Shown here: positions 4,331 to 64,000 of the stretch, one piece after another
Position numbering within the stretch: position 1 is the first letter of the stretch
Layout: each line of letters starts with the position of its first letter
Assembly: GCA_039586095.1 (NCBI GenBank)
Contig: JBDHLB010000009.1
Span: 2,160-66,159 of the forward strand
Length of the DNA stretch: 64,000 nucleotides
Direction of reading: 5' to 3'
Origin: Gemmatimonadota bacterium
Lineage (GTDB): Bacteria > Gemmatimonadota > Gemmatimonadetes > Palauibacterales > Palauibacteraceae
Translations under genes and position numbers: made by a program
Notes under the pieces: generated by a model
Database searches by the model: none
What the model was told of the DNA's origin: nothing
The model's input: only the letters and a program-made list of their open reading frames with translations

Positions 4331-4463
4331 AGTTCGGGTATCGGAGAGGGAGGAAGGGCGCAAACGCACCATGCTCTTGCCACTGGACAAGCGGCTTTCC
4401 TAAGGTTCGTATTAGCTTTGGAGGAGCCTTGAATCTCGTGTACCTACCTCGCGGTGCGACGCT

Positions 4464-12055: not shown

Positions 12056-12058
12056 GCG

Positions 12059-12808: not shown

Positions 12809-12874
12809 CTCTTCTTGCCTCCGTTTCGTTGGATGTCGGCAGGGCTCGGCGCTCGAGCGAAGCCTCGAAGGGGT

Positions 12875-14182: not shown

Positions 14183-14445
14183 TGTGGGTCTCCTGCCTGG
14201 ATCTCGTGCCTGGATCACCTGGTCGCGGCGAAGCCCCATGATGCGCAGACGCTCATGGCCGATGCCAGTCCGGGCAGCAGGCCTGCCATCCGTCCGAATC
14301 GACGCAGCCGTCACGCCCCGAAACGGCGGGACAGTCGAAAAATCATTAAACTGTATTGTCGTACCTTGAACACTCGCTGATCGCGAATCGACAGCGCATT
14401 CGCGTTTTCGTCCCGAGCAGGGCAACACGCCCGAGGAGATCGTGA

Positions 14446-16715: not shown

Positions 16716-17020
16716 GGGAGGACTCCTTTCACGCTAAACGTTTGCAATAGTGTGACTTCTCTCCATTCTAGAGACTCACGCCTCGCGCCGTAAGTAGCAA
16801 CCAGGCTTGCCGGTCGCGTATTTGGTCGTCGCTCTCACGGGCCTCGAGAGTTGCCCGAAGGCCCTTCACAGCGTAAGACTTTCCGTCATCTGCTCCACCC
16901 GACTTTGCACACGGATGGTTCTGCCTGGCTCTATAGACTGACGGTTCCGATTGACGAGCCGCGCCAGTCGCATGTGCTCGCTCGCACTCTAACAGCGTGG
17001 TACAACCGAGGGGGGCAATC

Positions 17021-20849: not shown

Positions 20850-20856
20850 GGCTTGT

Positions 20857-23136: not shown

Positions 23137-23291
23137 CCGGTCTACCGACTTCTAACAGCGGAGATCAGCGGTCGTGCATCCGCGCCAAGCTGCGGCGGGA
23201 TAAATGTCCGGCACATGCCGTCAATTGACAACGATAGGCACGCTTCCCTCAGCGCCTAACGCGCCCGAATCAGGCGCGCTCCCGTCTAGTC

Positions 23292-47657: not shown

Positions 47658-47862
47658 CCTGGACCTCCTGTGGCGGCAAAACGGGGGGACTCCCGGCTCG
47701 ATAGGCCGCGAACCCGCGAGTCTGATGCGCATGAGAGTGCACCGCGGGAGCGCCAATGGCAAGCCGATCGTCGAGGCGACGCGATTTGCGCTTTCGGATT
47801 CTACGTCTATCTTGCCGGCGCCCAAGCTCGTTCCGTCCATGCCTCACAGAAAGGATCCGAGG

Positions 47863-48612
47863 ATGAAGTGGAAGACACTGCTGTTGCCCGCAGTCGCCGT
47901 GCTCGCGTTCGCCGCACCCGTGCAGTCGCAGACCCTGATTGGCCAGTACTACCGCTGTAGCACCGCCGATGAGGGCGAGGCGGACTTTATCGTGAACGAA
48001 GTCTTCGAGGACGTCTTCGACAGCCACGTCGAGTCAGGTGAGCTGATCGGCTGGGGCTGGGTCGAGCACATGGCGGGAGGCCAGTGGCGAAGGATCTCCA
48101 CCATGACGGCGGAGAACCAGACTGCCGCCTGGGACGCGTGGGGATCGATCGTCGAGGACATCATGGACGACCACCCGAACGCATGGCACCGCTTCAACGA
48201 GATCTGCCCCTCGCACGACGATTACATCTGGAACATGGTCGCCACCTCGTCGCCCGAGGAAGCGGGCACCACGCCCGACATCTGGGCGTCGAGCTACTGG
48301 GTGTGCGATGAGACCGAGGAGGCGCGCGCCGACGAGCTCATGCAGCAGATGACCCCCGTGTTCGACAACCACATTGCCGCGGGCAACATTGGCGGATGGG
48401 GCTGGTACGAGCACGTGGTCGGAGGCCGGTTCCGCCGGCTGCTGACCCTCACCGAGGGAGAAGCCGCCAACATCCTCGAAGGCCGTGACCTGGTGATCGC
48501 GGATCTTCAGTTGCAGCACGCCGACGAGCTTGAAGAGTTCGGCAACATCTGCACCGGCCACGTCGACTACATCTGGGGGAACGCCGCCGAGGCTGACGAC
48601 GAGGACGACTAG
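47863..48612 (+). CDS. Secreted protein with two tandem ~115-aa repeats, unknown function
   Basis: The ATG at 47863 follows AAGGATCCGAGG. Signal peptide MKWKTLLLPAVAVLAFAAPVQSQ. The repeats are GELIGWGWVEHMAGGQWRRI...FNEICPSHDDYIWN and GNIGGWGWYEHVVGGRFRRL...FGNICTGHVDYIWG. It ends in an acidic tail, EADDEDD. Confidence 0.7.
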   Translation: MKWKTLLLPAVAVLAFAAPVQSQTLIGQYYRCSTADEGEADFIVNEVFEDVFDSHVESGELIGWGWVEHMAGGQWRRISTMTAENQTAAWDAWGSIVEDIMDDHPNAWHRFNEICPSHDDYIWNMVATSSPEEAGTTPDIWASSYWVCDETEEARADELMQQMTPVFDNHIAAGNIGGWGWYEHVVGGRFRRLLTLTEGEAANILEGRDLVIADLQLQHADELEEFGNICTGHVDYIWGNAAEADDEDD

Positions 48613-48713: not shown

Positions 48714-49010
48714 GCTTACCCGGGTCGAGGCCCGTGGATGTTTCCGGTCGGCAAGACGCCAGCCGGGTCCCTTTGACCGTCTGACTGTCGTCCCTGCGCG
48801 ACACGGATTCGAATTCGAGCACCACGGCGCCGCCGCGAGACACATGGGCACCAGTGTCCTCAACGTTAGTTTTCGTAACATCTTGTCAGTTTTGGCGCGC
48901 AACCGGCGGACAGCCAGGGCTGTCATGGCCTGCATATTGAAACACACGGCGCAAGCCCTCTCATGCTGCGACGAAAAACCGGTTTGGTGGCGTAAGGCTT
49001 GACAACCCGA

Positions 49011-50849
49011 ATGCAATTCACGGCCATGCGGCGTCTGACAGCCGCGACGGACCGACGCGTAGAAGAGCACGCAAAGCTCGCGGCCGAATTGGCGGACGCC
49101 GGGCGCTACGTCGAGGCGGAGCGTCAACGTGCGGCTGTCAGACGGCTCGTGCGCCAGAACCTCGAGGTATCGCCGCCAGATCCGCTGCTGCTGAACGACT
49201 ATGGCGTCGCGCTCGCCGAAGTCGGAGAGCTGGATCGCGCCATCGACTGTCTGGAGCGTGCTCACGCCGTAACACCGCGGGATCCGACTGTCCTGTTCAA
49301 CCTCGCCACCGCGCTCTGGCGGCGAGGACACTGCAGCGATGCCCGTCGCGCGGCCGCCCGGGCAAGACTCCTGGCGCCCGATGACACCGAGATCCGCAGC
49401 CTGGTGAATCGCATCCAGGGCACCCTGTCGGTATACGAACCCGATTTCCGCTTTTCGACGGACGCGGTCCCTGTGACGGCGGCCCGAAGGCTTGATCTGC
49501 GATCCGCCGAAATCTCTCCTCTTCATGTGCTTCGGGCGTCACTTCCGCACGTGAGCGCCGGGTATACCTTTCGCTCGCAGGAGCTCCTGGAGGGGCAGGA
49601 GGCGATCGGTCTGAGGCCCCTGGCCGTGACGGCGCCACTGTTCCCCGAGGACTGCTTCATCGATGGCGGGCAACCGCTCGACGTCGAGGACGTAGAAGGC
49701 GTTCGGTATCACCGATTGCGCATCCCCGGGGGGTTTGTCGCGGACCCGTCGGCAAACTCTCACTTTAAGGCAGAGTTCTATCGCGAAGAGATTCGGCAAC
49801 CTCTCGCTGAGTATCTCAGCCAGTATGCGGACGAGCTTTCGCGTCTCTGCGACCGGTTGGGACCGCACATCCTGCACAGCCACTCGGATCCCAAGAACGG
49901 CCTCGCGGCGGGTGCGGTGGCGTCGGCCAGGGGTATCCCCCATGTGTACGAGGTCCGCTACTTTCGTGAGGACGCTTCCGTGGCCAGAGGCAAACTGCCG
50001 CGCCACGCAGATCGATACCGGCTCGAGCGCGAGCTGGAAAGCCGTTGCTGTCGCGAAGCGGATGCCGTCGTGACGCTCTCACAGATCATGAGGGACGAGC
50101 TCGTCAGTCGAGGTGTGCAAGCAGACAAGATTTTCCTCGTCCCGAACGGTGCGAACGTCGAGCGCTTTCCTTTCACGAAGCAGCGGTGCCGTGGTCTGGA
50201 AAAGAGACTCGGGCTCGGGTCGGGTCCGGTGGTGGGTTACATCGGGAGTCTATCCACCTACGAGGGCGTGTCTGATCTCCTCACTTCCTTCCGCCTCATC
50301 GTGGACGCCATCCCTACAGCTCGTCTGCTCATCGTCGGGGGCGAGCGCGACGCCGAGGAAGCCTATCTGACGGCGAGCGATCTGGGGCTTGGCGATTCCG
50401 TAGTCTTTGCGGGCGTCGTCGATCGAAGTGAAATTCTGGACTACTACTCCGTGATTGACGTATTCGTCGTCCCCAGGCCTCCGGTGCGTGTATGCAAGAT
50501 GGTCACGCCCCTCAAGCTCTATGAGGCCATGGCCACAGGTCGCGCGGTCGTTGTGAGCGACGTGCCAGCCCTGCAGGAGATGATCACCGAAGGAGAGACG
50601 GCGGTCTCGTTCGAAGCGGGACGCCCGGATTCTCTCGCCGCCGTGTGCCTCGATCTGCTCGGCGATCCGGAGGGGCGAAGCGAGTTGGGTGCGAAGGCGG
50701 CGAGCTGGGTGCGCCAGCATCGCGATTGGACGACTGTTGCTCGAGGGTATCTCGACGCGTACGAGTACGCTTTCCAGGCTCGAGAACGCCGCGCCGTCAG
50801 GGCTTCGGAGAGCACCACGGTGACGCTGGCTGCGGGTCAACGCGGCTGA
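49011..50849 (+). CDS. TPR-domain + GT4-family (GT-B) glycosyltransferase fusion
   Basis: The N-terminal ~130 aa are TPR-like (NDYGVALAEVGELDRAIDCLERAHAVTPRDPTVLFNLATALWRRGHCSDA). The C-terminus carries the GT4 signature FVVPRPP...TPLKLYEAMATGRAVVVSDVPALQEMI (E-x7-E region). The start is ATG 49011 or TTG 48999. Confidence 0.8.
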   Translation: MQFTAMRRLTAATDRRVEEHAKLAAELADAGRYVEAERQRAAVRRLVRQNLEVSPPDPLLLNDYGVALAEVGELDRAIDCLERAHAVTPRDPTVLFNLATALWRRGHCSDARRAAARARLLAPDDTEIRSLVNRIQGTLSVYEPDFRFSTDAVPVTAARRLDLRSAEISPLHVLRASLPHVSAGYTFRSQELLEGQEAIGLRPLAVTAPLFPEDCFIDGGQPLDVEDVEGVRYHRLRIPGGFVADPSANSHFKAEFYREEIRQPLAEYLSQYADELSRLCDRLGPHILHSHSDPKNGLAAGAVASARGIPHVYEVRYFREDASVARGKLPRHADRYRLERELESRCCREADAVVTLSQIMRDELVSRGVQADKIFLVPNGANVERFPFTKQRCRGLEKRLGLGSGPVVGYIGSLSTYEGVSDLLTSFRLIVDAIPTARLLIVGGERDAEEAYLTASDLGLGDSVVFAGVVDRSEILDYYSVIDVFVVPRPPVRVCKMVTPLKLYEAMATGRAVVVSDVPALQEMITEGETAVSFEAGRPDSLAAVCLDLLGDPEGRSELGAKAASWVRQHRDWTTVARGYLDAYEYAFQARERRAVRASESTTVTLAAGQRG

Positions 50850-50888
50850 GGCCGGACTTCGGCCCAACCCCCGTCCGGCGGCTTCAGC

Positions 50889-51776
50889 TCACACGCAATC
50901 CGGCACCAGATCCTGCCACAGTCGGCCGAAATACTCATCGAAGAACGGGGTGAACCCGGCTCCGTTCCCGGGCGTCGTGGAAAACTCGTTGAACACGATC
51001 CGGTCCTCGGTGACGAAGAAATCGACGCGAACGTAGGTGCCGTACGAACGTCCGAGCCGAATCGCGTACTCCACCAGGTCGGGCAGCATTCGTGGAGCGG
51101 GGACCGGAGCCGCCGGCCGGAGCAACTCGGGCACGACCATGAAATCCGAAAACGGGTCCCAGTCTTCCGAATACACGCCATGCTCCGTTTCCGTCGCGAC
51201 AGCGCTACGGCGCATCCATTGAATAGCTCCGATGTGCTCGCCGAACGTATGCACCTTGGCCTCGAAGGGGAGCCCGCAGCCGTCCGGGTCGCCACTGATC
51301 ATCTCCTCGACCAGGATCGGGCCGTCGAGGAGCCGCATAATCGGCTTCCAGAGCAGCTCGCGCGCCGTATCACGCCGGAAGCGGGTCGAGCGTAGCAATT
51401 CCATGCCGTCGCAGACAACGAACACGGCCTGCCGCGAGTGCCCGAAACTGGCTCGAATCACGTATCTGTCCGGTAGCGCCTCCCACTCCAATCGGCTCAG
51501 GTCTCTCCCGCGCCAGTAGAGAACGGGGACCGGGATGCGGTGCCGAATGGCAAACTCGCGCGCATTCCACTTGTTGCTCAGCGAACGCTGCCAATGCCGG
51601 CAGCAGTGCCAGAGCCACTCGGGGTCGTGCCTGCGTCTCGCTGAATTGCGCTCCCACACCTGATGGAGGAAGTCGAGGTAGGTTCGGGGGCTTCCGAGGT
51701 CTCTGGGCTTCTGCCACCAGACCTCGAGTCGGCGCCGGAGGCGCTCCGAGTACGTCGGAAAGCCGAGGTCACTCAT
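50889..51776 (-). CDS. ATP-grasp-fold amidoligase, TupA-like
   Basis: The architecture and motifs parallel the TupA-like ATP-grasp family: NKWNAREFAIRHRIPVPVLYW...LPDRYVIRASFGHS...FEAKVHTFGEHIGAIQ...YVRVDFFVTEDRIVFNEFSTTPGNG. The start overlaps the upstream stop by 8 nt. Confidence 0.65.
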   Translation of the reverse strand: MSDLGFPTYSERLRRRLEVWWQKPRDLGSPRTYLDFLHQVWERNSARRRHDPEWLWHCCRHWQRSLSNKWNAREFAIRHRIPVPVLYWRGRDLSRLEWEALPDRYVIRASFGHSRQAVFVVCDGMELLRSTRFRRDTARELLWKPIMRLLDGPILVEEMISGDPDGCGLPFEAKVHTFGEHIGAIQWMRRSAVATETEHGVYSEDWDPFSDFMVVPELLRPAAPVPAPRMLPDLVEYAIRLGRSYGTYVRVDFFVTEDRIVFNEFSTTPGNGAGFTPFFDEYFGRLWQDLVPDCV

Positions 51777-52776
51777 GCCACGGCACTAATACCCCTAGCT
51801 CTGATGCGAGCTGCTCGAGGTCGCGGCGCTGCCGCTCGGTCAGCGGGATCCCGAGGCGCGACCACGCTTCCTCCCGCTCCGATTCGAGGCTTCCCGGCAC
51901 GTCCGAGCGGTCCAGTCCCGGCAAGGGCGGCATCGCGCGACTTTCCTCGATGATCTGCCGCACATCGGCCAGGAATGTATCGGCGTCGCCGATCAGGTCG
52001 GGGCGCAGGCCCAGCATGAGCAATCCATGCGTCGCCGCCGGGAACTTCCGATCAGCCTTGCGTCGCTCCCGCAGGTCACCTCCACCTTGGCCGGGCAACG
52101 TGCTGCCGAGCAAGCTGGCCGCGAAACGAAGCGACAGGCTCTTGATGACGGCTTCCGGAAACGCCGCCATGGCCGCTGGCAGTCGTCTGCTGTCACGGAA
52201 CGCGTTGGGATTCATGTCCACGACAATGGGCAATCCGCCGGACGGAATCGCGATGCACATCCCGGGTCCCGCGATCGCGTTCCAGATGGTGGCATCGGGT
52301 CGCGGTGCAGGTGGCCCTTCGTGCCTCGCGGCAAAGGAGAGCGTGATCAGGTTCTGTCTCAGCGCCATGCGCGCGTAGATGCCCAGACTCCCCACATGGC
52401 CATGGTTGCGGGTGGCCGCCACGAAGAGTCCGGTCTCCACGGCGCGAGCGATCAGCCTCTCCGTGGCCAGTCTGGCCACCAGTATGCCCGATCCGCCATC
52501 GCCGTCGAACACGGTCGCGACGGCGTCGTCGCGAGCCACGCGGGGCTCTGGGGTCGGGTTCAGCTGACCCTCCAAGTATTCCGTCACATAGCGACCGAGT
52601 TCCATGACGCCATGGCTGCGAATCCCGCGCAGGTCTACCTCCACCAGGCAGCCCGCGACAAGTGCAGCGTCTCGCTGCGGGACACCGGCCTGACGGAGCG
52701 CGTCGCACGCGAAACGCTGCAATGCTTCGGGCGGCACGCGGATCTCCGCGCCAGAGTCGCTCGCCGAGTCGCTCAC
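51769..52776 (-). CDS. Ldh_2-family (malate/L-lactate/sulfolactate-type) NAD(P)H oxidoreductase
   Basis: Ldh_2 pattern: LVEVDLRGIRSHGVMELGRYV...ATRNHGHVGSLGIYA. I favour GTG 52776, which forms a GTGA overlap with the GT2 stop. The track start at ATG 52827 would overlap GT2 by 55 nt. Confidence 0.7.
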   Translation of the reverse strand: MSDSASDSGAEIRVPPEALQRFACDALRQAGVPQRDAALVAGCLVEVDLRGIRSHGVMELGRYVTEYLEGQLNPTPEPRVARDDAVATVFDGDGGSGILVARLATERLIARAVETGLFVAATRNHGHVGSLGIYARMALRQNLITLSFAARHEGPPAPRPDATIWNAIAGPGMCIAIPSGGLPIVVDMNPNAFRDSRRLPAAMAAFPEAVIKSLSLRFAASLLGSTLPGQGGGDLRERRKADRKFPAATHGLLMLGLRPDLIGDADTFLADVRQIIEESRAMPPLPGLDRSDVPGSLESEREEAWSRLGIPLTERQRRDLEQLASELGVLVPWHE

Positions 52777-53912
52777 CGAGCCTCTCGGTCTGCGCCGGCC
52801 AGCGTTCGCGCGTGCCCGTTCGTGCACAGTCTCTCGACGCCCTCGACCAACGGTGTCACACCGGGATGAGTCTCGATCGCAGCGAGCATTTCCTCGAATC
52901 TCTTCATTGTCAGCACAGTGGATTCCGTCGCGTAGCCCTGCAGCGAGGCCAAGACACGAGAAACGTTCCCACCATTCGGTGACGGTTCACGGTCGCACGT
53001 GCGGTCCAGTAGATCGCGAGAGATCCAACCGTTTTGATCGAACAGGGCGAGGGGGATGAGGTTCCGGCACACGATCTTGACGGATTGACGGTGGAAGAAT
53101 CGGCCGGCCACCCAGCTTGGCAGATCGCGAGCTTCGGAGGGTCTCTCGAGGTCGATCTTCTCGTCCTGGTTGATATCTTTGCGCCGATAGTACTCCCTCG
53201 AGTAGAGCGACCACCGTAATAGATTCGTCTGGCTGTGCACGATTCTCCGCGCCGATGTCCACACGGGGATCGGATTCATGTATCCGCGGCCGCCTCGTGC
53301 CAGCGCGTACAGGGATAGCCGCAGCCCGAGCTCGGTCGTGGCCTCGGCCCGAGCGAAATACTGTCGCAGCGTGTCCGTCGCGTAGAAGCCGCAGCCAGCG
53401 TTCGCGAACCAGCCGAGCTGTCGCGCCAGCCGCCTGGAGACGAGGTCCACAGTGAGGTACGCATCGCGAAGACGCGGAGACTCATGAAGGTCTCGGTATG
53501 TGTAAGGGCTGAAGACGAAGCCGACGTCATCGGCCGCCTCCCGAAGAACGGCGGCCGCCGTGTGAATCCATCCCGGTGCGGCTGGCCGGCTGTCAGCATC
53601 CAGGAATCCCACGAATTCTGCCTCGAGCTGTTTCGCGCAGAACCGCGTGGCAGACTTCATCGCCTGGAACTTGCCGAGATGCGGCTCCTGAACATACCAC
53701 CACTCTCCCGACTGAACCTCGTCCAGGCCTCGCACGAACGCCCCAGACCCGTCGATCGAACCGTTGTCCAGGAACACCACGGCAGCGGCATGCGGCTGCT
53801 GCTTTCGAAGGGACTCGATGAAAGCCGGCAGACGCAAACGCTCGTTGTGGAACGGAACGACCAGCGCGTACGCGGAATCGTCCCGGCTCCGCAGCGTTTT
53901 CGGACTGCTCAT
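52773..53912 (-). CDS. GT2-family glycosyltransferase
   Basis: GT-A pattern: YALVVPFHNERLRLPAFIESL...VVFLDNGSIDGS...GFLDADSRP (DxD-like). I start it at ATG 53912 (MSSPK), which forms an ATGA overlap with the AsnB-like stop. Confidence 0.8.
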   Translation of the reverse strand: MSSPKTLRSRDDSAYALVVPFHNERLRLPAFIESLRKQQPHAAAVVFLDNGSIDGSGAFVRGLDEVQSGEWWYVQEPHLGKFQAMKSATRFCAKQLEAEFVGFLDADSRPAAPGWIHTAAAVLREAADDVGFVFSPYTYRDLHESPRLRDAYLTVDLVSRRLARQLGWFANAGCGFYATDTLRQYFARAEATTELGLRLSLYALARGGRGYMNPIPVWTSARRIVHSQTNLLRWSLYSREYYRRKDINQDEKIDLERPSEARDLPSWVAGRFFHRQSVKIVCRNLIPLALFDQNGWISRDLLDRTCDREPSPNGGNVSRVLASLQGYATESTVLTMKRFEEMLAAIETHPGVTPLVEGVERLCTNGHARTLAGADREAR

Positions 53913-55798: not shown

Positions 55799-56067
55799 AG
55801 CCGCTACCCCGTCCTGTTGTGCACACTCTGTGCGTCAAACCACACGCGACTCGCGGGAACTATCATTCTTCGCCAACCTGTGGCAACGTTGCTTGCTCGC
55901 ACTGGCCTCTGCCCGGCAATCGGAGGAGGCCGATAAAGAAGGGTCCTGTCAGATGAAACTGCAAGATAGGTACGAGGGGTGGTTGTGCGGGCTTCGAAGG
56001 GGTGGCGTGGCAGCGTCGCAACACAAACGAGCCTCGTGACGGGCAAAGGAACCATGGTACGTTGTCC

Positions 56068-57135
56068 ATGAGGTCGGATCTTTACCTTCCGTTCGTCGTC
56101 GGTCTCACGAAACGGGACTCCCGGGCGGTGAGCCGTCTCGTGTCGACCGCCGATTACGAGCCCGCTGGTCTCCTGGCGTTCGCCTATCGGAACGGCATTC
56201 CCGGCTATCTCTACGTGCTGCTCCGAGAAATGGAGCAGCTGGGGGCATTCCCCGACACGATGGTCGAGGAGTTGTACGGCTTCTACAGGGAGCGACAGCT
56301 GCCGACCTGTCGCCTGCTGACCGACGAGCTCGTCGAGGTCCGCGAGCGCTTGGAGTCGGCGGGCGTCGAGATCGTATACATCAAGGGGCCGTGTCTCGCT
56401 CAGCGCTTCTACGGTGATCCGAACGCACGGCTGTTTTGGGACAACGACCTCTTGGTGCGCGGGCGGAGTGGTGTGGAGCGGTGCGATGACGCGCTCCGTC
56501 AGTTCGGCTATCGGCGGAAGTCCAGTTTGCTGCCGGGCTACAAGCTGTCCATGCATTTCGCCCACGATTTCGAGTATGAGCGAGAGTGGAGGAGGTTGGA
56601 CCTCCACTGGCGACTTGCAGCCCATTACTCGTTCCGGGTCGATGAGGAACGCATGTGGTCGTCTCGCGAAACGCTGCTCCTGCGAGACCGGCCCTTCACG
56701 GTTCTTTCGGCGGAGTACGTTCTCGTGCTACTGCTGCTGGCTCTCTTCAACGACGGTCAGCGCGGCAAGCTCCGCGCAAAGGGAATGATCGACACGTACA
56801 TGGTTCTTGCATCTGTCCACGAGAAGTTGGATTGGGCGGGCTTCTTTGCCCGCCGCGAAGAGGAAAGGATCCTGAAGATCAGCTGTACGATGCTGAATCT
56901 GGTCCTGCATGCGTTCGACAGTCGGACCGAGTTTCCCGAGCTGACGAACCGACTCGATGCCCAGGCCGAACAGATCGGGCCGAGCGACCGCGAACACGCC
57001 TTGTGGCTTCTCGAACGATCGCACGGGTCGCTCGACAACAAGTTCTGGACCTTCCGATTGTACGATTCGAGCCTCTGGAAGGTGTTGCTCTGGTACGTGG
57101 CCTCACAGCCCATCAAGCAGGCGGTGTACCGGTGA
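56068..57135 (+). CDS. Uncharacterised nucleotidyltransferase family protein (NTP_transf_5-like)
   Basis: Family-like pattern: YIKGPCLAQRFYGDPNARLFWDNDLLVRGRSGVERCDDALRQFGY...LDLHWRL. The start is ATG 56068 or GTG 56002. Confidence 0.65.
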   Translation: MRSDLYLPFVVGLTKRDSRAVSRLVSTADYEPAGLLAFAYRNGIPGYLYVLLREMEQLGAFPDTMVEELYGFYRERQLPTCRLLTDELVEVRERLESAGVEIVYIKGPCLAQRFYGDPNARLFWDNDLLVRGRSGVERCDDALRQFGYRRKSSLLPGYKLSMHFAHDFEYEREWRRLDLHWRLAAHYSFRVDEERMWSSRETLLLRDRPFTVLSAEYVLVLLLLALFNDGQRGKLRAKGMIDTYMVLASVHEKLDWAGFFARREEERILKISCTMLNLVLHAFDSRTEFPELTNRLDAQAEQIGPSDREHALWLLERSHGSLDNKFWTFRLYDSSLWKVLLWYVASQPIKQAVYR

Positions 57136-59030
57136 AACGTTCTGGCCGCCGCAAGCAGGTCGACACACGCGCGGGGAGCGAGTGGACTCGAACCACCGAT
57201 CATGCCACCGCCTACTCGGACAAGCTCAAGTCGATCATTCCCACGGGGCGCTGGGCCCTGCGCCTGATCTACGCCACCAGCCCGTCCCTGCTTCTGGGGC
57301 TCGTCGCGCTGGTGTTCGTGCTGGGGCTGCTGCCGGCCGGCCTCGCCCTCACCGTGCGCGGCCTCGTGAACGCCGCGGTCGAAGTGCTCGACAATCCCGC
57401 TGTCGGTTTCAGCCCGATCCAGTTCTGGCTTCTGCTCGCCCTCCTCCTGTCCATCCTGGAGGCTGTCGGATTCAGCCTCGACACGTTCTTCAAGAAGCGT
57501 CTGGTCGATGAGCTGAACCTCAGGGTCAACAGCGATATCCTCAGTCATTCGTCCCGGCTCGATGTGGCTTTCTTCGAGGACCCGAGGGAACGGGACCTGA
57601 TCGCGCGGACCCGGCAGGACTCGGCCGGGCAGCTGGTCCGCTTCGTCACGGAGCTGCTTCGCGCCGCGACGAACCTGTTTCGTGCCGCTTCGCTGGTGAG
57701 CGTGCTCGCCTACATCGAGCCGCTGGTCCTGCTGGTGGTCCCCCCGTTTGCGATTCCGTTCCTTGCCTTCCAGTGGAAGCTGGCCCGAGAACGGTATGCG
57801 GAGCAGCACAGCCGGACGACAAAGCGGCGCTGGACGAGCTACTTCGTCAGCCTGATGACAGGTACCACGTCGGTGGGAGAGGTGAAGCTGTTGGGCATCG
57901 GGCCGCTGCTCATCAGAAGGTATCGGGAGCTCATGGAGGAGTTCCGCGTCCGCGATCGCCGCCTTCACCGGCGCAGTATGATCGGCGGCTCCGTGGCCGC
58001 CATCCTGGTGATTGTCGCCGTGTTCGCGATCTTCGTGCGCGTTGCCTACCGCGCCGTCCAGGGAGGGGCGAGCCTCGGGGATCTCGCCGTGTTCGCGGGC
58101 GCGACGGCCAGACTTCGGATCTCGCTCGACAACGCCATCGTCGCCGTGACCGTTGCTGCCGAGCAGGTCCTCTTCATCGCGAACCTCGAGAAGTTCCTGC
58201 AGGTCGAGCCACACGTCGCCAGAACAGGAGAGCGGGTGCCTCCGCTCGACCGAGGGGCAATCGAGCTCCGCGACGTCACGTTCGCCTACCCGGGCTCGAA
58301 GGATCCGGTGCTGCAGAACCTGTCCCTGGAGATCCGGCCAGGAGAGACACTGGCGATCGTGGGTGAGAACGGCGCCGGCAAATCGACGCTCGTCAAGCTT
58401 CTGGCCCGCTTCTACGATCCCGACGAGGGGCAGGTGCTGTTCGACGGAGTCGATCTCAAGGAAGTGTCCGTGGAGCACCTGCACCGTAGAATGGGGCTGG
58501 TCCTTCAGACGTTCGGCCGGTACGAGACCACCGTCGCGGAGAACATCGCATACGGCAATCTGGAGGATTTGCTGGAGGATCCCGCCCGGATCGAAGAACT
58601 GGCTCGTGCCGTGGGACTGGATCAGAAGATCGAGTCACTGGACGAGGGCTACGAGACGCACCTGGGCCGGATGTTCGGTACCGTGAACCTCTCCGGGGGT
58701 CAGTGGCAGAAGATCGCCGCGGCTCGGGCGCTGGCCCGGAACGCTTCGCTGCTCGTTCTCGACGAACCCACGTCGAATCTGGATGCGCGGGGAGAGCACG
58801 AGCTGTTCACTCGCTTCCGCGATATGGCCGCAGACAGAACGACTATCCTCATCTCGCACCGGTTCACCACGCTCAGCATGGCGGATCGGATCGCCGTCAT
58901 GGCGAACGGGCGGATCGTCGAGCTGGGCACGCACGAAGCGCTGTGCGCTCAGGGAGGCGTCTACGCCACGCTGTACGGTTTCTACGAGCAGCTCCTGCCC
59001 GAACACCGGCTGCTGGGTCAGAGCTCCTGA
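57132..59030 (+). CDS. ABC exporter, fused permease + ATPase (type I exporter fold)
   Basis: Six-TM N-terminal half, followed by Walker A GENGAGKST, signature LSGGQWQKIAAARAL, Walker B LLVLDEPTSNLD and H-loop ILISHR. I start it at GTG 57132, which forms a GTGA overlap with the upstream stop. The track ORF 56655..59030 extends 5' inside the upstream gene. Confidence 0.85.
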   Translation: MKRSGRRKQVDTRAGSEWTRTTDHATAYSDKLKSIIPTGRWALRLIYATSPSLLLGLVALVFVLGLLPAGLALTVRGLVNAAVEVLDNPAVGFSPIQFWLLLALLLSILEAVGFSLDTFFKKRLVDELNLRVNSDILSHSSRLDVAFFEDPRERDLIARTRQDSAGQLVRFVTELLRAATNLFRAASLVSVLAYIEPLVLLVVPPFAIPFLAFQWKLARERYAEQHSRTTKRRWTSYFVSLMTGTTSVGEVKLLGIGPLLIRRYRELMEEFRVRDRRLHRRSMIGGSVAAILVIVAVFAIFVRVAYRAVQGGASLGDLAVFAGATARLRISLDNAIVAVTVAAEQVLFIANLEKFLQVEPHVARTGERVPPLDRGAIELRDVTFAYPGSKDPVLQNLSLEIRPGETLAIVGENGAGKSTLVKLLARFYDPDEGQVLFDGVDLKEVSVEHLHRRMGLVLQTFGRYETTVAENIAYGNLEDLLEDPARIEELARAVGLDQKIESLDEGYETHLGRMFGTVNLSGGQWQKIAAARALARNASLLVLDEPTSNLDARGEHELFTRFRDMAADRTTILISHRFTTLSMADRIAVMANGRIVELGTHEALCAQGGVYATLYGFYEQLLPEHRLLGQSS

Positions 59031-60520
59031 CGCTGGACCTTGCCAGCGGCGCTGGTCGGCAGCTGTTCGCGAAATTCTATGACGCTCGGGACCTTGTAGT
59101 CCGCCAATCGATCGCGGCAGAGGGCGATCAACTCGTCTCGGCTGCACTCGCCTTTGGGCACCACGACGGCTCGCACCCGCTGATCTCCGTACGGCGTGTC
59201 CACGCCCGCGACGACCGCCTGCCCGACAGCGGGGTGACGCTCGAGGACCTGCTCGACTTCATAGGGATTGACCTTGTAGCCCCCGCAGTTGATGAAGAGC
59301 GACTTCCGCCCGATCAGGCAGATGTTGCCGTTTGCGTCCTTACGTCCGACGTCTCCGGGAAAGAAGAAGCCCCCCTGGAAAGCCTTGGCCGTCGCCTCGG
59401 GAAGGCCAGGGTACAAAGTCGTCGCCGCAGGGCTGCGGATCCCGATGTCGCCTTCCTCTCCCGGTACCGCCGGTGTGCCATCCTCGCCGAAGATCTCTAC
59501 CTCCACGCCCTCGATCGGGAGTCCTACCGACTCCAGTGACTCCCGCGGGTCGTCTGCCAGATTGAGAGCGATGGTCCCCGTCTCGCTCGAACCATAGAGC
59601 TGGCGCACGAACAGTCCATATCGATCGTTGAAGGCGACGCTGGCCGCCTGCGGAAGCGGGGCGCTCGAGCTGAAGCAGTGGCGCAGCGAAGAGAAATCGA
59701 CTGGCTCTGGCCACCGGCTCTCCGCCAGCACCTGAAACATGAACGGGACGCCGATGAAGATGTTGATCCGATGCTCCTCGATGGCGCGCGCCACGGACCG
59801 TCGCTCGTACCTGGGAAGTGGCACGAGCGTCGCCCCGGAGACCATCGACGCCAGCATGCTGCGCGTGAGGCCGTTCACGTGGGAAAACGGCGCCACGCCG
59901 ATCACGCGGACCTCCGGCGAAAAGCCGAGTGCCTTTGTAAGCCGATCCGTCTCGTACAACAGGTTGAAGTGCGTCCGAACGATTCGCTTCGGCTTCCCGG
60001 TACTGCCCGAAGAGTAGAGGTAGAGGACGGGGTCATCCGATGTCGCCGCCGCCTCCGACCAAGGTATCGCCTTTCCCTCGCCTTCACCCGAGGCATCCGG
60101 AGCATCGTCGTCGTCCACCTCGAACACGGCCTCGCGGTCCTCACCGCGGGCCGTCAGGAGTGCGGCCGTGCAGCGCTCGTGAAGATCCGCGTCCGTGATG
60201 AAGAACTCGACGCCCGCGTCGCCCAGCAACGACGCCATTTCCGTTTCGGTGAGCACCGGGTTGATCGGCACCACGACGCCTCCTGCGTGCGCGGTGGCGA
60301 AGAACGCCCGGATGAACGCCGGACCGTTGGGCAGGGCGATCGCGACCCTGGTCCCGGAGCCCGCGCCCGATTCGCGCAACCTGTTGGCCAGTTGAGCCAC
60401 GCCGCGTGCGAGCTCGCCGTACGTGATCGCATTCGACTTCCAGAGAATCGCCGGGTGCTGCGGATTCGCTTCCGCCGCAAGCCGGAAACGGTCGCCCAGG
60501 GTATTCGCGCTAGAACGCAT
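59018..60520 (-). CDS. AMP-dependent synthetase/ligase (acyl- or aminoacyl-carrier-protein ligase type)
   Basis: Adenylation motifs YLYSSGSTGKPKRIV, YGSSETG, GDVGRKDANGNICLIGRKS and GYKVNPYEVE, with a C-terminal GKVQR. It converges on the ABC exporter with a 13-nt overlap. Confidence 0.85.
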   Translation of the reverse strand: MRSSANTLGDRFRLAAEANPQHPAILWKSNAITYGELARGVAQLANRLRESGAGSGTRVAIALPNGPAFIRAFFATAHAGGVVVPINPVLTETEMASLLGDAGVEFFITDADLHERCTAALLTARGEDREAVFEVDDDDAPDASGEGEGKAIPWSEAAATSDDPVLYLYSSGSTGKPKRIVRTHFNLLYETDRLTKALGFSPEVRVIGVAPFSHVNGLTRSMLASMVSGATLVPLPRYERRSVARAIEEHRINIFIGVPFMFQVLAESRWPEPVDFSSLRHCFSSSAPLPQAASVAFNDRYGLFVRQLYGSSETGTIALNLADDPRESLESVGLPIEGVEVEIFGEDGTPAVPGEEGDIGIRSPAATTLYPGLPEATAKAFQGGFFFPGDVGRKDANGNICLIGRKSLFINCGGYKVNPYEVEQVLERHPAVGQAVVAGVDTPYGDQRVRAVVVPKGECSRDELIALCRDRLADYKVPSVIEFREQLPTSAAGKVQRQEL

Positions 60521-60824
60521 GCGATTCTCCCGTGGCAGCCACCGCCTCGATCTTGCGGCGCACCGCCTCCACGAGGGACCCGAAGCTCTCGAGGCTCTCG
60601 GCGAACTCCTCTGCCTCGAGAAACAGGTCGAACTCGTTCTCGATCCGTATCATCAGACTCACCGTGTCGAGGGAGCTGAGCCCGATCCCCTGACCCACGA
60701 TCGGCGTGTCCCGCTCGATCTCCTTCCACGACACGGCACCGCCCGTCTGCTCAGCCATGAGTTTTCTGAGCCGCTTCTCCAGATCCACAGGTCCGCCGCC
60801 TTCGTGCGGTACCGAATTGCTCAT
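60510..60824 (-). CDS. Acyl/peptidyl carrier protein
   Basis: 104 aa. The phosphopantetheine-attachment-like site is GQGIGLSSLDTVSLMIRIENEF. The start forms an ATGA overlap with the upstream stop (60821-60824), and its 3' end overlaps the ligase start by 11 nt. Confidence 0.75.
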   Translation of the reverse strand: MSNSVPHEGGGPVDLEKRLRKLMAEQTGGAVSWKEIERDTPIVGQGIGLSSLDTVSLMIRIENEFDLFLEAEEFAESLESFGSLVEAVRRKIEAVAATGESHAF

Positions 60825-61615
60825 GGGCTGTTTACAGACCGAGGGTCGACTTCTTTTCTGCGAAAGAAGCGAAGCTCGCCCTCCCTGTAGCACCGGTGAT
60901 GACGAGCGATGTAGGCCCTCACCGGGATCAGTTCCATCTCGGCGATTCCAGCCGCGACGTGTATCGTTGCGCCCTCGTCCCGGAGCCTCTTCAGCACGAT
61001 CTCCCTATTGCAGGTGATCTCAGGGTTGTGTCCGCGCGTCTCCATCCAGCGCTCATTCCCGTGCTCGTCGACGAGGAGCACGCGGACGTGACGTTTCGAG
61101 TACACATCGTGCTCCAGCGAGTCCTGCAGCAGGTGGTCCGCCAGGTGTCGGAACGTCATGAGACGTACGCCCAGGTTGAGAACCAGAGCCTCGCCCGCGT
61201 GCATGCGTTGAAAGGGCGAGTTCTCGTCGAACGGGGTGGGGCAGAGCTCGTGACCTTCCGTGAGCTCGGTGGCGCGAGCACCACGGGCGGCCACAGCGTG
61301 CGTGGCGTGCAGGCTTCTCCGAGTACCGGGCATGCGACGTAACAGCTCGGTCAGGAGTCCGGTCTGTGAGGGTGTGCGGTGCCAATCGAAACTCGGGCTA
61401 CTCGCCAGGTACACGGCCGACCGGCCCCGCATCGGATAGGTGGGCATGACCAGCGTGCCGCCCTCGCCGACGGCACCGCACAGGGCGTCGAGAAGCTGCA
61501 TGGGCGATTCTGCGACTGACGCCATCTTGCTCCATGAGCTGTGAACGAAGATGATCCGGTCCCTGAGCGGCAAGCGGTCCAATGCCTCGGAGAACAGGTC
61601 GGGACGACCGCTCAT
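60821..61615 (-). CDS. AAC(3)-family (Antibiotic_NAT fold) N-acyltransferase
   Basis: IIFVHSSWSKMASVAESPMQLLDALCGAVGEGGTLVMPTY...RTPSQTGLLTELLRRMPGTRRSLHATHAVAARG matches the aminoglycoside-3-N-acetyltransferase fold pattern. The start overlaps the upstream stop by 4 nt. Confidence 0.75.
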   Translation of the reverse strand: MSGRPDLFSEALDRLPLRDRIIFVHSSWSKMASVAESPMQLLDALCGAVGEGGTLVMPTYPMRGRSAVYLASSPSFDWHRTPSQTGLLTELLRRMPGTRRSLHATHAVAARGARATELTEGHELCPTPFDENSPFQRMHAGEALVLNLGVRLMTFRHLADHLLQDSLEHDVYSKRHVRVLLVDEHGNERWMETRGHNPEITCNREIVLKRLRDEGATIHVAAGIAEMELIPVRAYIARHHRCYREGELRFFRRKEVDPRSVNSP

Positions 61616-62805
61616 TGCGCCTCGGAGGCGCGGTCAGCTTCCGCTATTGGCGCGGCGCGGTCGAGGGCCACGCTGGCTCTCTTCTCCCGGACCGCCCGTG
61701 CTTCCCGGGCCTGTACCTCCATGACGTTCGCGTCCACCGCGAACTTGCACGCCCAGTTGGGCAGCCTGTTCGGCATGTAATCGCCGTCGATTGGCCACGA
61801 CCCGGCGACGCCGCCTCTCACACCGGGCGATCCCTCGAGCATGATCGTCCGCCGTACGTATCGGTTCGCCAGGAGCGCGGCATCCCGGTATTTCGAGTCG
61901 CCCGTGAAGTCATACAGCATGAACCAGCAGCAGGCGATCTGTGCCGTGCCCGTCAGGCAAGCCGAGTGAGCCGCCGCTCGCCAGGTCCGGTCCAGGCGAC
62001 CCGGTATGAAACCATCAGCGTCCATGACGCGAATCAGCGCATCGGCCGTTCGTCGCGCCGCTCTCAAGTACGCTTCCTCGGGCCGAAACCGATGGCCCTC
62101 CAGCACACCCCGCAAGGCATAAGCGATCGTGTGCGTCACCGGTCGCTCGAACGTCCGCAGGTCGCACGCTTCGAACCAGCCGTTCTCGAGCTGAAGGCCC
62201 AGCGCCCAGTCGATGTTCGCCCGGGCCGCTTCGGCGTATCCACGGTCCGGGTCGATGCGAGCCGCCTCGAACAGGCCCCAGCAAGTCTGAATTTCGTATG
62301 TCTTCGCCCCGGGCGCCGTAAACGCCGACGGATTCACCGACCATGCGCCATCGTCATCCTGCGTGTCGACGAGCCAATCCGCGGCCCGCCGCATCGACTG
62401 TCGGTAACGCGATCCCCACTCCTTCACGCCGGCCGCGAGACCGATGAGAATCTGCCCGGTATTGAAGGTGACAGGCACGACGGGCACGACCCCCATCCGA
62501 CCGCCTCGAAACGCCCCGCTCTCGAACTGGATCGAAACCAGCCAATCGAGCATACGACGCACTCGGTCACGCAACCCGCCGTCGCCCTTCCGGAGAGCGT
62601 GGTCGAGCAGGGTCGGAGCGATGTAGCCCGTCGTTTCCGGGTACGATGTGGACCACCCGTCCTCGCGGTGGAAGAAGCTCGCCACGCCCCCGTCGCCCGT
62701 CGCCGAGAAATCCTGGGCGCGGCACAGCCAGCTGATCCCTTCCTCGACGACCCGTCGAGCGCCCGGGTCGGAGGTGGGTGGCCTCGTCGTCTCAGATCCG
62801 TACAA
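61612..62805 (-). CDS. Terpenoid-cyclase/prenyltransferase-like alpha/alpha-barrel repeat protein
   Basis: QW-like units recur: WLVSIQFESGAFRGG, WLVDTQDDDGAWS and WALGLQLENGWFE. YPETTGYIAPTLL is also present. It has no LanC Zn-ligand motifs. The assignment is at fold level only. Confidence 0.6.
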   Translation of the reverse strand: MYGSETTRPPTSDPGARRVVEEGISWLCRAQDFSATGDGGVASFFHREDGWSTSYPETTGYIAPTLLDHALRKGDGGLRDRVRRMLDWLVSIQFESGAFRGGRMGVVPVVPVTFNTGQILIGLAAGVKEWGSRYRQSMRRAADWLVDTQDDDGAWSVNPSAFTAPGAKTYEIQTCWGLFEAARIDPDRGYAEAARANIDWALGLQLENGWFEACDLRTFERPVTHTIAYALRGVLEGHRFRPEEAYLRAARRTADALIRVMDADGFIPGRLDRTWRAAAHSACLTGTAQIACCWFMLYDFTGDSKYRDAALLANRYVRRTIMLEGSPGVRGGVAGSWPIDGDYMPNRLPNWACKFAVDANVMEVQAREARAVREKRASVALDRAAPIAEADRASEAQ

Positions 62806-62930
62806 TGTCTCTCCATCGTTTGCCAGAATCGTTCGTTTCCGGTCCAGAATCTGCGTTGGCCTGCTTCAGATGCCGCCGCTTCGTCATTGGCTGGCCTGGA
62901 TCCGGTCCCGAGGTCAGGAAAGCACATTCT

Positions 62931-64000
62931 ATGCCCAAATCGAGCCACACGCCCGAGGCCAGGAACCCCGATTCGGGCCAGATCTCCGCTCCCCTGACCG
63001 TCGTGTTCGCCGGCCACCTCCTCCACTTCGTGGATCCACTGATCGAGTATCTGCGGTCGGACCCGCAGTACAACGTGCTCGTCGACCTGTGGAAGGGGCA
63101 CCGATTTCACGACGAGGCTTCGAGCGAGCGTTGCGTGGCTGCGGCGGATGTCATCTTCTGCGAGTGGTGTCTGGGCAACGCCGTGTGGTACTCGAAGCGC
63201 AAGCGGGCCAACCAGAAGCTGCTCCTGCGCTTCCACCGACAGGAGTTCTTCGGACGTCCACGCACCAGATACGTTCCTCAGGTCGACTGGGAGGCCGTGG
63301 ATGCGGCCATTGCCATCGCGCCCCATTTCCGAGATGAGCTACGGTCCGCAGGACTGACGGAACGGGACAAGTTCCATTTCATCCCCAACCTGTTCGATAC
63401 CGGGCGCTTCGACCGACCGAAGCCGGCCGACGCCCGTTTCCGGATCGGTGTCGTCAAGTATGCGCCGATGCGCAAGCGACCTGACGTGGTGCTCCAGATC
63501 TTCGAGCGTCTCAAAGCTACGGAACCCCGATTTCAGCTCACCTTCATCGGCCGACGTCCCGAGCAAGTGGACTGGGTCTGGAACAAACCGGCCGAGCGGG
63601 CATTCGTGAACCAGTTTCTCCGGTCTGTGGAAGCGTCGCCACACCGATCGTCCATCTCGTTCGAGGACTACACGGATGACATGCCGGCCTGGTATTCACG
63701 GTTCGGCGTCATTCTCTCGACCAGCGACTCCGAGGGCTCGCACCAGGCCGTGGCAGAGGGTATGGCCTCTGGAGCCGTGCCGGTCATCCGCGACTGGCCT
63801 GGCGCCGACAGACTGTATCCGGCCCGCTACGTGTTCTCCGACGTCGAGCAGGCCACGCGGCAGATCCTTTGGGCCACGGATCCGGACCGCTTCCCGAAGC
63901 TGTCTCGATCCGTGAAGGAGTGGGCGTCCCGATTCGATACGAGTACCGTTGCGAAGCAGATTGTGCGGCTCTTTCACGAGCCCGGAGCTCGACCGGTGGA
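62931..64000 (+). CDS. GT4-like (GT-B) glycosyltransferase, 3'-truncated by the window end
   Basis: This gene is not in the supplied track because there is no stop codon before 64000. I translated by hand from ATG 62931: MPKSSHTPEARNPDSGQISAPLTVVFAGHLLHFVDPLIEYL...RIGVVKYAPMRKRPDVVLQIFERL...FGVILSTSDSEGSHQAVAEGMASGAVPVIRDWPG (E-x7-E-type motif). An AGGAAAG lies 9-15 nt upstream. Confidence 0.75.
   Translation, partial: MPKSSHTPEARNPDSGQISAPLTVVFAGHLLHFVDPLIEYLRSDPQYNVLVDLWKGHRFHDEASSERCVAAADVIFCEWCLGNAVWYSKRKRANQKLLLRFHRQEFFGRPRTRYVPQVDWEAVDAAIAIAPHFRDELRSAGLTERDKFHFIPNLFDTGRFDRPKPADARFRIGVVKYAPMRKRPDVVLQIFERLKATEPRFQLTFIGRRPEQVDWVWNKPAERAFVNQFLRSVEASPHRSSISFEDYTDDMPAWYSRFGVILSTSDSEGSHQAVAEGMASGAVPVIRDWPGADRLYPARYVFSDVEQATRQILWATDPDRFPKLSRSVKEWASRFDTSTVAKQIVRLFHEPGARPV

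Follow-up and report, generated by a model that had tools for sequence, protein, structure and literature searches.

What does a locus make in which glycosyltransferases (GTs) stand beside three kinds of carboxylate-activating enzyme, an acyl carrier protein and an ABC exporter? Such a locus occupies positions 48999-64000 of the stretch analyzed here, 64 000 nt from a Gemmatimonadota bacterium (assembly GCA_039586095.1, contig JBDHLB010000009.1, positions 2160 to 66 159 of the forward strand); the whole stretch is called ‘the window’ below. An earlier note, made from the letters of the window and a list of its open reading frames (ORFs), had named 12 genes in four units and read them as a pathway for a decorated glycan: (a) a TPR-GT4 fusion; (b) an AsnB-like, GT2, Ldh_2 and TupA-like ATP-grasp operon; (c) an NTP_transf_5 gene (NTP5) paired with the ABC exporter; (d) a four-gene operon described in the next paragraph, followed by a weak GT4 gene (GT4b). 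All 12 genes are present with the domains assigned to them (Pfam and NCBIfam scans; the AsnB-like one only weakly by Pfam, its fold being recovered with AlphaFold2/Foldseek), and domains, folds and synteny bear out a glycan biosynthesis and tailoring locus. We put at about 60% the probability that the locus assembles and tailors a cell-surface or secreted glycan with an N-acylated amino sugar and amidated carboxylates, exported by the MsbA-like ABC protein; the general class, glycan assembly and tailoring, is well supported, the individual substrates are not.

This answer was built on gene content, folds, operon structure and the conserved and variable parts of the synteny, and its N-acylation part was argued mainly from one minus-strand operon, encoding an (alpha/alpha)6 barrel, an N-acyltransferase of AAC(3) fold (NAT), a stand-alone acyl carrier protein (ACP) and a FadD-like acyl-AMP-forming ligase. 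The grouping of ligase, carrier protein and N-acyltransferase in one operon, already proposed from the letters, is conserved in the nearest relative with a long contig (GCA_039587755.1, here L006), where the ligase is 77% identical in the same operon and the 104-aa ACP has an orthologue. Elsewhere the barrel-NAT pair has other company. The FadD-like ligase and ACP of the window and L006 give way to a protein with a true FkbH domain (259.7 bits, above cutoff), an ACP, a 3-hydroxyacyl-CoA dehydrogenase and an acyl-CoA dehydrogenase in a distant marine contig (L001); to a PaaK-like ligase, a class IV aminotransferase and a chorismate-binding enzyme in a Ca. Scalindua metagenome-assembled genome (L009:9902-16452); and to an exosortase-A-type ligase, a pyridoxal phosphate (PLP) decarboxylase and a hydrolase in Roseateles and Mitsuaria. 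Because such differing acyl-supply cassettes adjoin the barrel-NAT pair, we infer that NAT installs variable N-acyl groups from donors made by the neighbouring genes.

The Scalindua set, we observed in passing, resembles a p-aminobenzoate-type acyl-supply cassette in the glycan locus of an anammox bacterium. For the ligase of the window all NCBIfam matches are below cutoff, that to the exosortase-A-associated model TIGR03098 included (233 vs 592 bits). NCBIfam ACP models score ∼30 bits on the carrier protein, whose serine motif, GLSSLD, was read directly. Pfam found neither an MBOAT protein (DltB) nor DltD in the window; without these, and with a ligase that is FadD-like and not DltA-like, a Dlt-type D-alanylation system was rejected.

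The barrel family is large: it has more than 4000 homologues at 55-60% identity, its relatives are encoded in at least 588 stretches of species-representative genomes, and at least ten phyla share it, with identities of 50-60%. Hosts are found among Planctomycetota (Scalindua), Acidobacteriota, Nitrospirota, Gemmatimonadota, Chloroflexota, Bdellovibrionota and many Proteobacteria, with Massilia, Janthinobacterium, Roseateles and Mitsuaria as cultured carriers in the last group. The earlier note had suggested checking the protein as a squalene-hopene cyclase or prenyltransferase; its AlphaFold2 model (predicted local distance difference test score, pLDDT, 92) has instead a GH88/AGE-like fold, the top Foldseek matches being GH88 unsaturated glucuronyl hydrolase, cellobiose/glucose 2-epimerases, YihS-type isomerases and GH76 (template modelling score ∼0.70). 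No terpene cyclase was among its top 50 Foldseek matches, and the NCBIfam squalene-hopene cyclase model gave 35 bits vs a cutoff of 322, so that a terpene cyclase or prenyltransferase was ruled out; judging by the model, the Pfam label SQHop_cyclase_C is misleading. Since direct reading found no signal peptide and the structural neighbours are of GH88/AGE type, the barrel is predicted to be a cytoplasmic sugar-acting enzyme, whose own step may be epimerisation or hydrolysis.

In 72 non-redundant barrel loci, genes were called with a caller filtered by third-position GC (GC3) and clustered, and the recurrent clusters were annotated. The neighbours were Wzx (Polysacc_synt_3), Wzy_C with DUF5935, Bac_transf, UDP-glucose dehydrogenase, NAD-dependent epimerase, canonical Cys-containing AsnB, GT4s, FemAB-like Acetyltransf_6 and an AAA_22 ATPase, which is the make-up of Wzx/Wzy and exosortase-type exopolysaccharide (EPS) loci. 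The gene adjoining the barrel codes for an AAC(3)-fold NAT in about one-third of the 72 loci and elsewhere for a FemAB-like transferase; a gene for an N-acyl or aminoacyl transferase usually comes after the barrel. In the cultivable Roseateles subflavus APW6 and Mitsuaria sp. WAJ17, barrel, NAT and ligase occur together with the second of two Cys-less AsnB subgroups (see below).

The NAT of the window falls in the PF02522 fold family and stays below the cutoffs of all AAC(3) resistance families (NF033082, 75 bits vs 270, NCBIfam); its homologues in PDB are AAC(3)-IV, the biosynthetic FrbF and YokD. With scores that low, and an operon shared with an ACP, it was not taken for an aminoglycoside-resistance gene.

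The AsnB-like protein was harder to place. Pfam matches it at ∼1e-4 only, NCBIfam matches are weak (TIGR03108, 29 vs 817 bits) and a single-sequence search gave no PDB match. A word-indexed search of 5.8 billion proteins returned 10 relatives; an exhaustive search of 1.84 billion gave 122 representatives with E<1e-30, a number that rises to 232 with E<1e-10. The protein represents a small, distinct and very divergent family of ∼600-640 aa. The family profile matches human ASNS (3.7e-9), TsnB9 and AsnB over both domains. The AlphaFold2 model (pLDDT 78.9; predicted template modelling score, pTM, 0.82) retrieves TsnB9 first (Foldseek, 5e-18), then carbapenam synthetase (CarA), beta-lactam synthetase (BLS), ASNS and AsnB, down to 1e-11. 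On the strength of the model, the protein has the two-domain AsnB fold and is a predicted ATP-dependent amide ligase.

The fold indeed comes without the Cys nucleophile, as had been noticed from the letters: the N-terminus reads MHAFMAFFEHE, and an N-terminal Cys occurs in 0 of 11 close homologues. Because this nucleophile is missing, the enzyme would work without the usual glutamine hydrolysis and ammonia supply. The SGGxDS PP-loop is replaced by LTAGxDSR (LTAGLDSR in the window), invariant in the closest 11 sequences; across 52 family members L, G and R are invariant and T, A and D occur in at least 90%. A loop so conserved is probably functional. TsnB9, BLS, CarA and the lasso cyclases, which include the best structural matches, have the two-domain fold in common with this protein, and the loss of the glutaminase Cys is seen in BLS, CarA and the lasso cyclases too; the differences are an identity of 13-16%, TAGxDS vs SGGxDS, and a polysaccharide context instead of a secondary-metabolite or ribosomal-peptide one.

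A metagenome scan with an 11-sequence alignment gave 18 loci, two of them usefully long. In L001 the AsnB-like gene follows the barrel-NAT pair, co-directional and at 24-bp spacing; in another locus, L094, a family member lies within a Wzz-Wzy-(AsnB-like)-GT4-Wzx-GT4 operon. As the neighbours in both are polysaccharide genes, the AsnB-like protein would act in a glycan context, and a lasso peptide is made less likely.

A second Cys-less AsnB subgroup was observed near barrel and NAT in L018, L021, L046, L049, L056-L058, L065 and L074, in loci of Burkholderiales and Rhodospirillaceae type. Its N-terminus is M-x-x-[FI]-A-G-I-V instead of MCGI, its SGGxDS is canonical, and in some loci it stands near an exosortase-A-type ligase.

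The ATP-grasp protein aligns to PF14305 only over its C-terminal 56 residues (229-284); it has 62 homologues, mostly in Gemmatimonadota, with the same precomputed Pfam assignment. TupA-like ATP-grasp proteins are generally encoded in surface-polysaccharide loci. In the HS:2 capsule of Campylobacter jejuni, the TupA-like C-terminal domain of Cj1438 forms an amide at the glucuronate C6 carboxylate (PMC11800379), a precedent for the tie between TupA-like enzymes and uronic acids that the earlier note had named. By analogy the window enzyme is predicted to be a carboxylate-amine amidoligase; it differs from Cj1438 in that it stands alone and is not fused to a GT2, and in the short Pfam match. A homologue with 58% identity belongs to another glycan locus, L114, with GT2, GT4, NTP_transf_5, an ABC protein and WbpB/D/E-like genes.

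Ldh_2 is by family a predicted 2-oxo/2-hydroxy-acid oxidoreductase; its closest structures, L-sulfolactate dehydrogenase 2x06 and malate dehydrogenase 1v9n, cover the N-terminal half only. For TPR-GT4 the best NCBIfam model is TIGR04063, a GT of PEP-CTERM/XrtA systems (322 bits vs a cutoff of 442). The ABC protein scores best against MsbA, in NCBIfam (290 bits vs a cutoff of 602) as well as among solved bacterial homologues (2e-64), and carries no C39 peptidase domain. It is the sole ABC protein of the cluster, a fused ABCB/MsbA-like half-transporter; with no separate Wzm-type permease or Wzt-type ATPase present, the cluster does not qualify as an ABC-dependent export system of Wzm/Wzt or KpsMT type. 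The nucleotidyltransferase motif of NTP5, KGP...WDxDLLV, is invariant in three homologues. Functional data on such a protein turned up only for PsmN, an uncharacterised NTP-transferase-like protein from the lasso cluster of pseudomycoidin. PsmN is encoded just before the ABC gene, is required for hexose addition to the phosphate of a phosphorylated lasso peptide and depends on its DxD residues (PMC6993621). Both proteins have a nucleotidyltransferase fold and are encoded right before an ABC exporter gene, but the substrate of PsmN is a phosphorylated peptide and the window holds no kinase.

The locus could then work as follows, the substrates, the order of steps and the link between Ldh_2 and the ligase being our proposal. 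The GT4 and GT2 enzymes (TPR-GT4, GT4b and GTs beyond the window) would assemble an oligosaccharide, bound to a lipid carrier, on the cytoplasmic side. The ligase would adenylate a carboxylic acid, possibly a 2-hydroxy acid supplied by Ldh_2, and load it onto the 104-aa ACP; NAT, together with the sugar-acting barrel, would move the acyl group to the amine of an amino sugar. ATP-grasp and AsnB-like proteins would each use ATP to activate a carboxylate, most likely the C6 of a uronic acid or the carboxyl of an acyl side chain, and couple it with an amine, so that amide-linked decorations arise. NTP5, translationally coupled to the exporter, would add or prepare a further substituent, and the MsbA-like protein would flip or export the lipid-linked or free product. 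Two of these steps have counterparts in characterized glycans: in the Wbp/Vim pathway a diamino-uronic sugar undergoes AsnB-type amidation and is aminoacylated (PMC7468200), and in an O antigen that depends on an ABC transporter a dedicated tetronate cassette serves to N-acylate perosamine (PMC3441752).

Several points weigh against this decorated-glycan scheme. AAC(3)-fold enzymes are known as users of acyl-CoA and not of acyl-ACP, and an AMP-ligase is near the barrel-NAT pair in only about one-quarter of NAT-containing loci. The PP-loop of the AsnB-like protein is non-canonical (TAGLDS), its use of ATP being a prediction; a homologue of the ATP-grasp gene sits among unrelated genes in L110, a complete Gemmatimonadota genome; the role given to NTP5 is a guess. 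The nearest relatives lack GT2, Ldh_2, ATP-grasp and TPR-GT4, so that these four may act on a product other than that of the core. Finally, neither the window nor the 21-kb locus examined in L006 has genes for sugar nucleotides, amino sugars or uronic acids (DegT, UDP-glucose dehydrogenase, dehydratases), and no priming transferase was seen in either; the missing sugar-nucleotide modification genes and priming transferase weaken all readings, those below included.

How far does the locus extend? Eight window genes are found in L006 in the same order, with 67-84% protein identity. The L006 layout starts with GT2, GT2, a 317-aa gene, GT4, GT4, a TIGR04063-like GT4 and Hepar_II_III; then come GT4b, divergent from barrel-NAT-ACP-ligase, and ABC with NTP5 on the opposite strand; then a 326-aa gene, the AsnB-like gene and a homologue of the window gene at 47644-48612. 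GT4b is 74% identical to its L006 counterpart and 55% to that of L001, divergent from the barrel in both; its 357 translated codons in the window equal the length of the 357-aa L006 orthologue, so the gene should be nearly complete. NTP5 is 78% identical in L005 and L006, again with the ABC gene after it. Judged from the L006 sequence, which continues at least 10 kb past the point corresponding to position 64000, the 15 kb are not the complete cluster. The left boundary lies near 48.7-49.0 kb, where it had been placed originally, and the region is probably the variable, tailoring-rich end of a larger locus of at least 25-30 kb.

In L006 (6854-8818) we also noticed a heparinase II/III-like gene two genes from the GH88/AGE-like barrel; this pairing of a lyase-like with an unsaturated-glucuronyl-hydrolase-like protein might serve polymer trimming or C5-epimerisation. 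The 326-aa gene (L006:17188-18168), carried by the relatives between NTP5 and the AsnB-like gene and missing from the window, is 44% identical to a 319-aa gene that follows the ATP-grasp homologue in L110 (10881-11840). It has no match in Pfam, NCBIfam or PDB sequence searches; from its WLDCDVVF (DxD-like) motif its product may be a divergent GT-A glycosyltransferase. The flanking gene at 47644-48612 (plus strand) is 80% identical in the relatives and matches nothing in Pfam or NCBIfam; its product has the probable start MKWKTLL, a signal peptide and an internal duplication (GWGWVEH... / GWGWYEH...).

DNA alignment with L006 shows homology through the AsnB-like gene and 84 bp of GT2, up to 53825, and again from 48615 on. 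The 5.2-kb block in between (most of GT2, Ldh_2, ATP-grasp and TPR-GT4) is absent from the nearest relatives. Since the start of GT2, its first ∼28 codons, is retained in relatives that lack the rest of the gene, deletion there is favoured over insertion in the window; with no flanking repeats and no GC shift relative to the rest of the cluster, origin of the block from a mobile element was rejected. Thus unit (a) and all of unit (b) but the AsnB-like gene are variable, ATP-grasp occurs in unrelated contexts as well, and the ‘four-unit pathway’ of the earlier note has to be seen as partly a variable mosaic. That note had set beforehand, as a test, whether the units are scattered in related genomes. 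Co-localisation held for the core: L001 has TPR-GT4 (55%), GT4b (55%), barrel (61%), NAT (48%) and AsnB-like (39%) side by side, so that the core is conserved over large distances; for GT2, Ldh_2 and ATP-grasp it failed in part.

One could go further and regard only the core (GT4b, barrel-NAT-ACP-ligase, NTP5-ABC and AsnB-like) as one system, with the 5.2-kb block as a cassette gained or lost on its own, either active on a different substrate or no more than a neighbour. The two breaks in homology fit this view, as does the L110 homologue of ATP-grasp, paired there only with the 319-aa protein, and the order GT2-Ldh_2-ATP-grasp was found in no other locus. Yet GT2 is coupled to the AsnB-like gene by an ATGA overlap, its retained codons point to deletion in the relatives, TPR-GT4 stands beside the core in L001, ATP-grasp keeps company with NTP_transf_5, an ABC protein, GT2 and GT4 in L114, and the GC content of the block is that of the rest of the cluster. 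On balance we find such a separation unlikely.

We see as little promise in a small acylated glycoconjugate or glycolipid, an N-acylated and amidated oligosaccharide pumped out by the MsbA-like protein and comparable to Nod factors or glycolipid surfactants. Wzx, Wzy, Wza, Wzc and Wzm/Wzt are absent from the window and from the 21-kb L006 locus, the exporter is of the ABCB type that handles lipids and amphiphiles, L001 adds a sulfotransferase, and the set of ligase, ACP, N-acyltransferase, GT2 and ABC protein parallels the logic of Nod-factor synthesis. The extended locus, however, encodes at least seven glycosyltransferases and a heparinase II/III-like protein, and family members of the barrel and AsnB-like protein usually belong to Wzx/Wzy polymer loci.

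Very improbable, and rejected, is a lasso-like system of RiPP type (a peptide made by ribosomes and then modified) in which the AsnB-like protein cyclises a small peptide that is then tailored and exported: lasso clusters do have an ABC exporter and an AsnB homologue that lacks the Cys, joined in Firmicutes by the uncharacterised NTP transferase PsmN and an HprK-like kinase, and their leader peptidases can be dispensable (PMC6993621), while an HprK-related kinase-like protein and a sulfotransferase occur in distant relatives of our locus, but neither a transglutaminase-like B protein nor PqqD/RRE was found among the cluster ORFs (Pfam), no small ORF is conserved, the AsnB-NTP5 intergenic region is itself not conserved in L006, the exporter has no peptide-linked features, and family members are tightly spaced and co-directional with their neighbours, which are barrel-NAT in L001 and the Wzy and GT4 genes of the Wzx/Wzy operon in L094.

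The accessory families just mentioned deserve a note of their own. A P-loop protein of 373-378 aa is encoded in distant relatives (L001:11897-14106; L114:1-1881 and 13406-14479); in L001 it shows a weak, below-cutoff match to HprK-related kinase B (TIGR04355, E 1.7e-10), and the L114 copy is 39% identical to that of L001. The sulfotransferase accompanies it in L001, NTP_transf_5 and an ABC exporter in L114. HprK-like, sulfotransferase, NTP_transf_5 and ABC proteins are accessory families of Firmicutes lasso-peptide clusters, here found inside glycan loci.

Among described systems the decorated-glycan locus comes closest to the EPS loci of XrtA type (Haft’s TIGR030xx/TIGR04063). TPR-GT4 and the L006 GT4s score best against GT models of XrtA systems; the barrel-NAT pair adjoins an exosortase-A-type acyl-CoA ligase, a PLP decarboxylase and a hydrolase in Roseateles/Mitsuaria; and barrel loci share FemAB-like, AsnB, Wzy_C+DUF5935 and AAA_22 genes typical of such loci. 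The differences are several: every score in the window and L006 is below the curated cutoffs; exosortase, PEP-CTERM protein, PrsK/R/T and EpsI-type ATPase are absent from the window ORFs and the called genes of the 21-kb L006 locus; the amidotransferase-like protein of the window lacks the Cys; and NTP_transf_5, MsbA-like exporter, Ldh_2 and TupA-like ATP-grasp lie outside that set. The locus thus resembles exosortase-type EPS loci without belonging to them. The impression of the earlier note that this is not a described pathway was only half right: exosortase-type EPS loci commonly have the barrel-NAT pair and the ligase/ACP theme. As a class the cluster is ordinary, but several of its decorating enzymes are in conserved uncharacterised families.

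The tetronate set of Vibrio cholerae O1 includes an ACP and an AMP-ligase-like protein. This gene set, VC0248-VC0252, supplies the hydroxy-acyl group for N-acylation of perosamine in an ABC-dependent glycan (PMC3441752); it differs from our locus in having a Wzm/Wzt transporter and no AAC(3)-fold transferase, barrel, AsnB-like or ATP-grasp protein. In the Wbp/Vim pathway of Porphyromonas and Tannerella, which makes the linking sugar of type IX secretion (T9SS), a diamino-uronic sugar receives a new N-acyl group from a dedicated transferase, an AsnB homologue encoded within the glycan locus amidates it, and the authors remarked on the same gene types in PEP-CTERM loci (PMC7468200). There, however, the transferase is FemAB/VimA-like and AsnB canonical, and Wbp genes, a deacetylase and a sorting system were not seen in the window. 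The locus works along the lines of the C. jejuni amidoligase, Wbp/Vim and V. cholerae tetronate schemes, but with none of the three does it share an orthologous set.

One could speculate, at rather long odds and by analogy, that barrel-NAT, swappable acyl cassettes and Cys-less AsnB-type ligases form a widespread unrecognised module making one N-acylated or amidated ‘special’ residue in exosortase-type and related glycans. That residue could be an attachment or recognition sugar for sorting or export, like the Wbp/Vim linking sugar of T9SS cargo. In this lineage, lasso-type tailoring families would have been recruited for a glycan: NTP_transf_5 and ABC here, HprK-like kinase and sulfotransferase in distant relatives.

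The features of the locus are collected in Table 1. Real genes were separated from long spurious ORFs by third-position GC and ORF length, G+C being 64-66% throughout the window; the host is a high-GC and probably marine bacterium. Starts downstream of the longest ORF were chosen for GT2, Ldh_2, ACP and NTP5 (the longest ORF of the last begins at 56002); TPR-GT4 has 616 aa from TTG 48999 or 612 aa from ATG 49011. Independent gene calls in a second assembly of the same organism (GT2 379, Ldh_2 335, ATP-grasp 295, TPR-GT4 612 aa) agree with the refined starts; that assembly stops inside the AsnB-like gene. Stop and start codons overlap, as read from the sequence, in NTP5/ABC and GT2/Ldh_2 (GTGA), in AsnB/GT2, barrel/NAT and NAT/ACP (ATGA), by 8 nt in Ldh_2/ATP-grasp and by 11 nt in ACP/ligase; the convergent ends of ABC and ligase operons overlap by 13 nt.

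Table 1. Features of the glycan locus, in window coordinates
Feature	Position	Strand	Evidence
TPR + GT4	48999/49011-50849	+	Glyco_trans_1_4 2e-25; TPR_19 2e-8
TupA-like ATP-grasp, 295 aa	50889-51776	-	PF14305 29.7 bits vs cutoff 25
Ldh_2, 335 aa from GTG 52776	51769-52776	-	PF02615 5e-51
GT2 with C-terminal extension, 379 aa from ATG 53912	52773-53912	-	PF00535 1.3e-11
AsnB-like, 629 aa	53909-55798	-	weak Pfam (1e-4); fold by AlphaFold2/Foldseek
Divergent intergenic (promoter) region, AsnB-like operon vs NTP5-ABC pair	55799-56067		direct reading
NTP_transf_5 (NTP5), 355 aa from ATG 56068	56068-57135	+	PF14907 2.5e-33, 116 bits vs cutoff 31.2
ABCB/MsbA-like fused permease-ATPase exporter, 632 aa	57132-59030	+	ABC_membrane + ABC_tran
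AMP-binding, FadD-like acyl-AMP-forming ligase, 500 aa	59018-60520	-	AMP-binding 8e-79 + AMP-binding_C
Stand-alone ACP, 104 aa from ATG 60824	60510-60824	-	PP-binding 2.5e-4
Antibiotic_NAT, AAC(3)-fold N-acyltransferase (NAT), 264 aa	60821-61615	-	PF02522 1.4e-39, 136.5 bits
(alpha/alpha)6 barrel, 397 aa	61612-62805	-	SQHop_cyclase_C 1e-8
Weak GT4 (GT4b)	62928-64000 (window end)	+	weak GT4 Pfam matches

The intergenic region 55799-56067 has one weak sigma-70-like match, on the minus strand (55886-55859), and its small ORFs have no conserved counterparts in L006. Scans for Rfam families and tRNAs found nothing in the window. Among the window ORFs screened with Pfam and NCBIfam there was no Wzx, Wzy, Wza/Wzc or exosortase; the earlier note had come to the same result by reading.

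The first 46 kb of the window code for unrelated transport and metabolic proteins. A redox run at 10925-18508, unrelated to the cluster, consists of an octopine/nopaline dehydrogenase-like gene (10925-12055), a flavin mononucleotide (FMN)-dependent 2-hydroxy-acid dehydrogenase (12875-14467), a radical SAM protein (14446-15993) and an FAD/BBE oxidase (16955-18508). Three large amino-acid-permease fusions are all on the minus strand (8614-10797, 18537-20873 and 20857-23151), one with PTS_EIIA_2 and TrkA_C, the two adjacent ones with universal stress protein domains. At 4416-6023 (plus strand) a short-chain dehydrogenase is fused to ankyrin repeats, an architecture uncommon in bacteria.

The value of the locus is that it places three uncharacterised families in a readable context: the barrel, the TAGxDS Cys-less AsnB-like protein, and NTP_transf_5 outside lasso clusters. 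If the barrel-NAT pair does install variable N-acyl groups, this would account for some of the chemical diversity that environmental exopolysaccharides show, as in the floc formers of activated sludge or in anammox bacteria, and the pair would offer testable targets in cultivable Burkholderiales.

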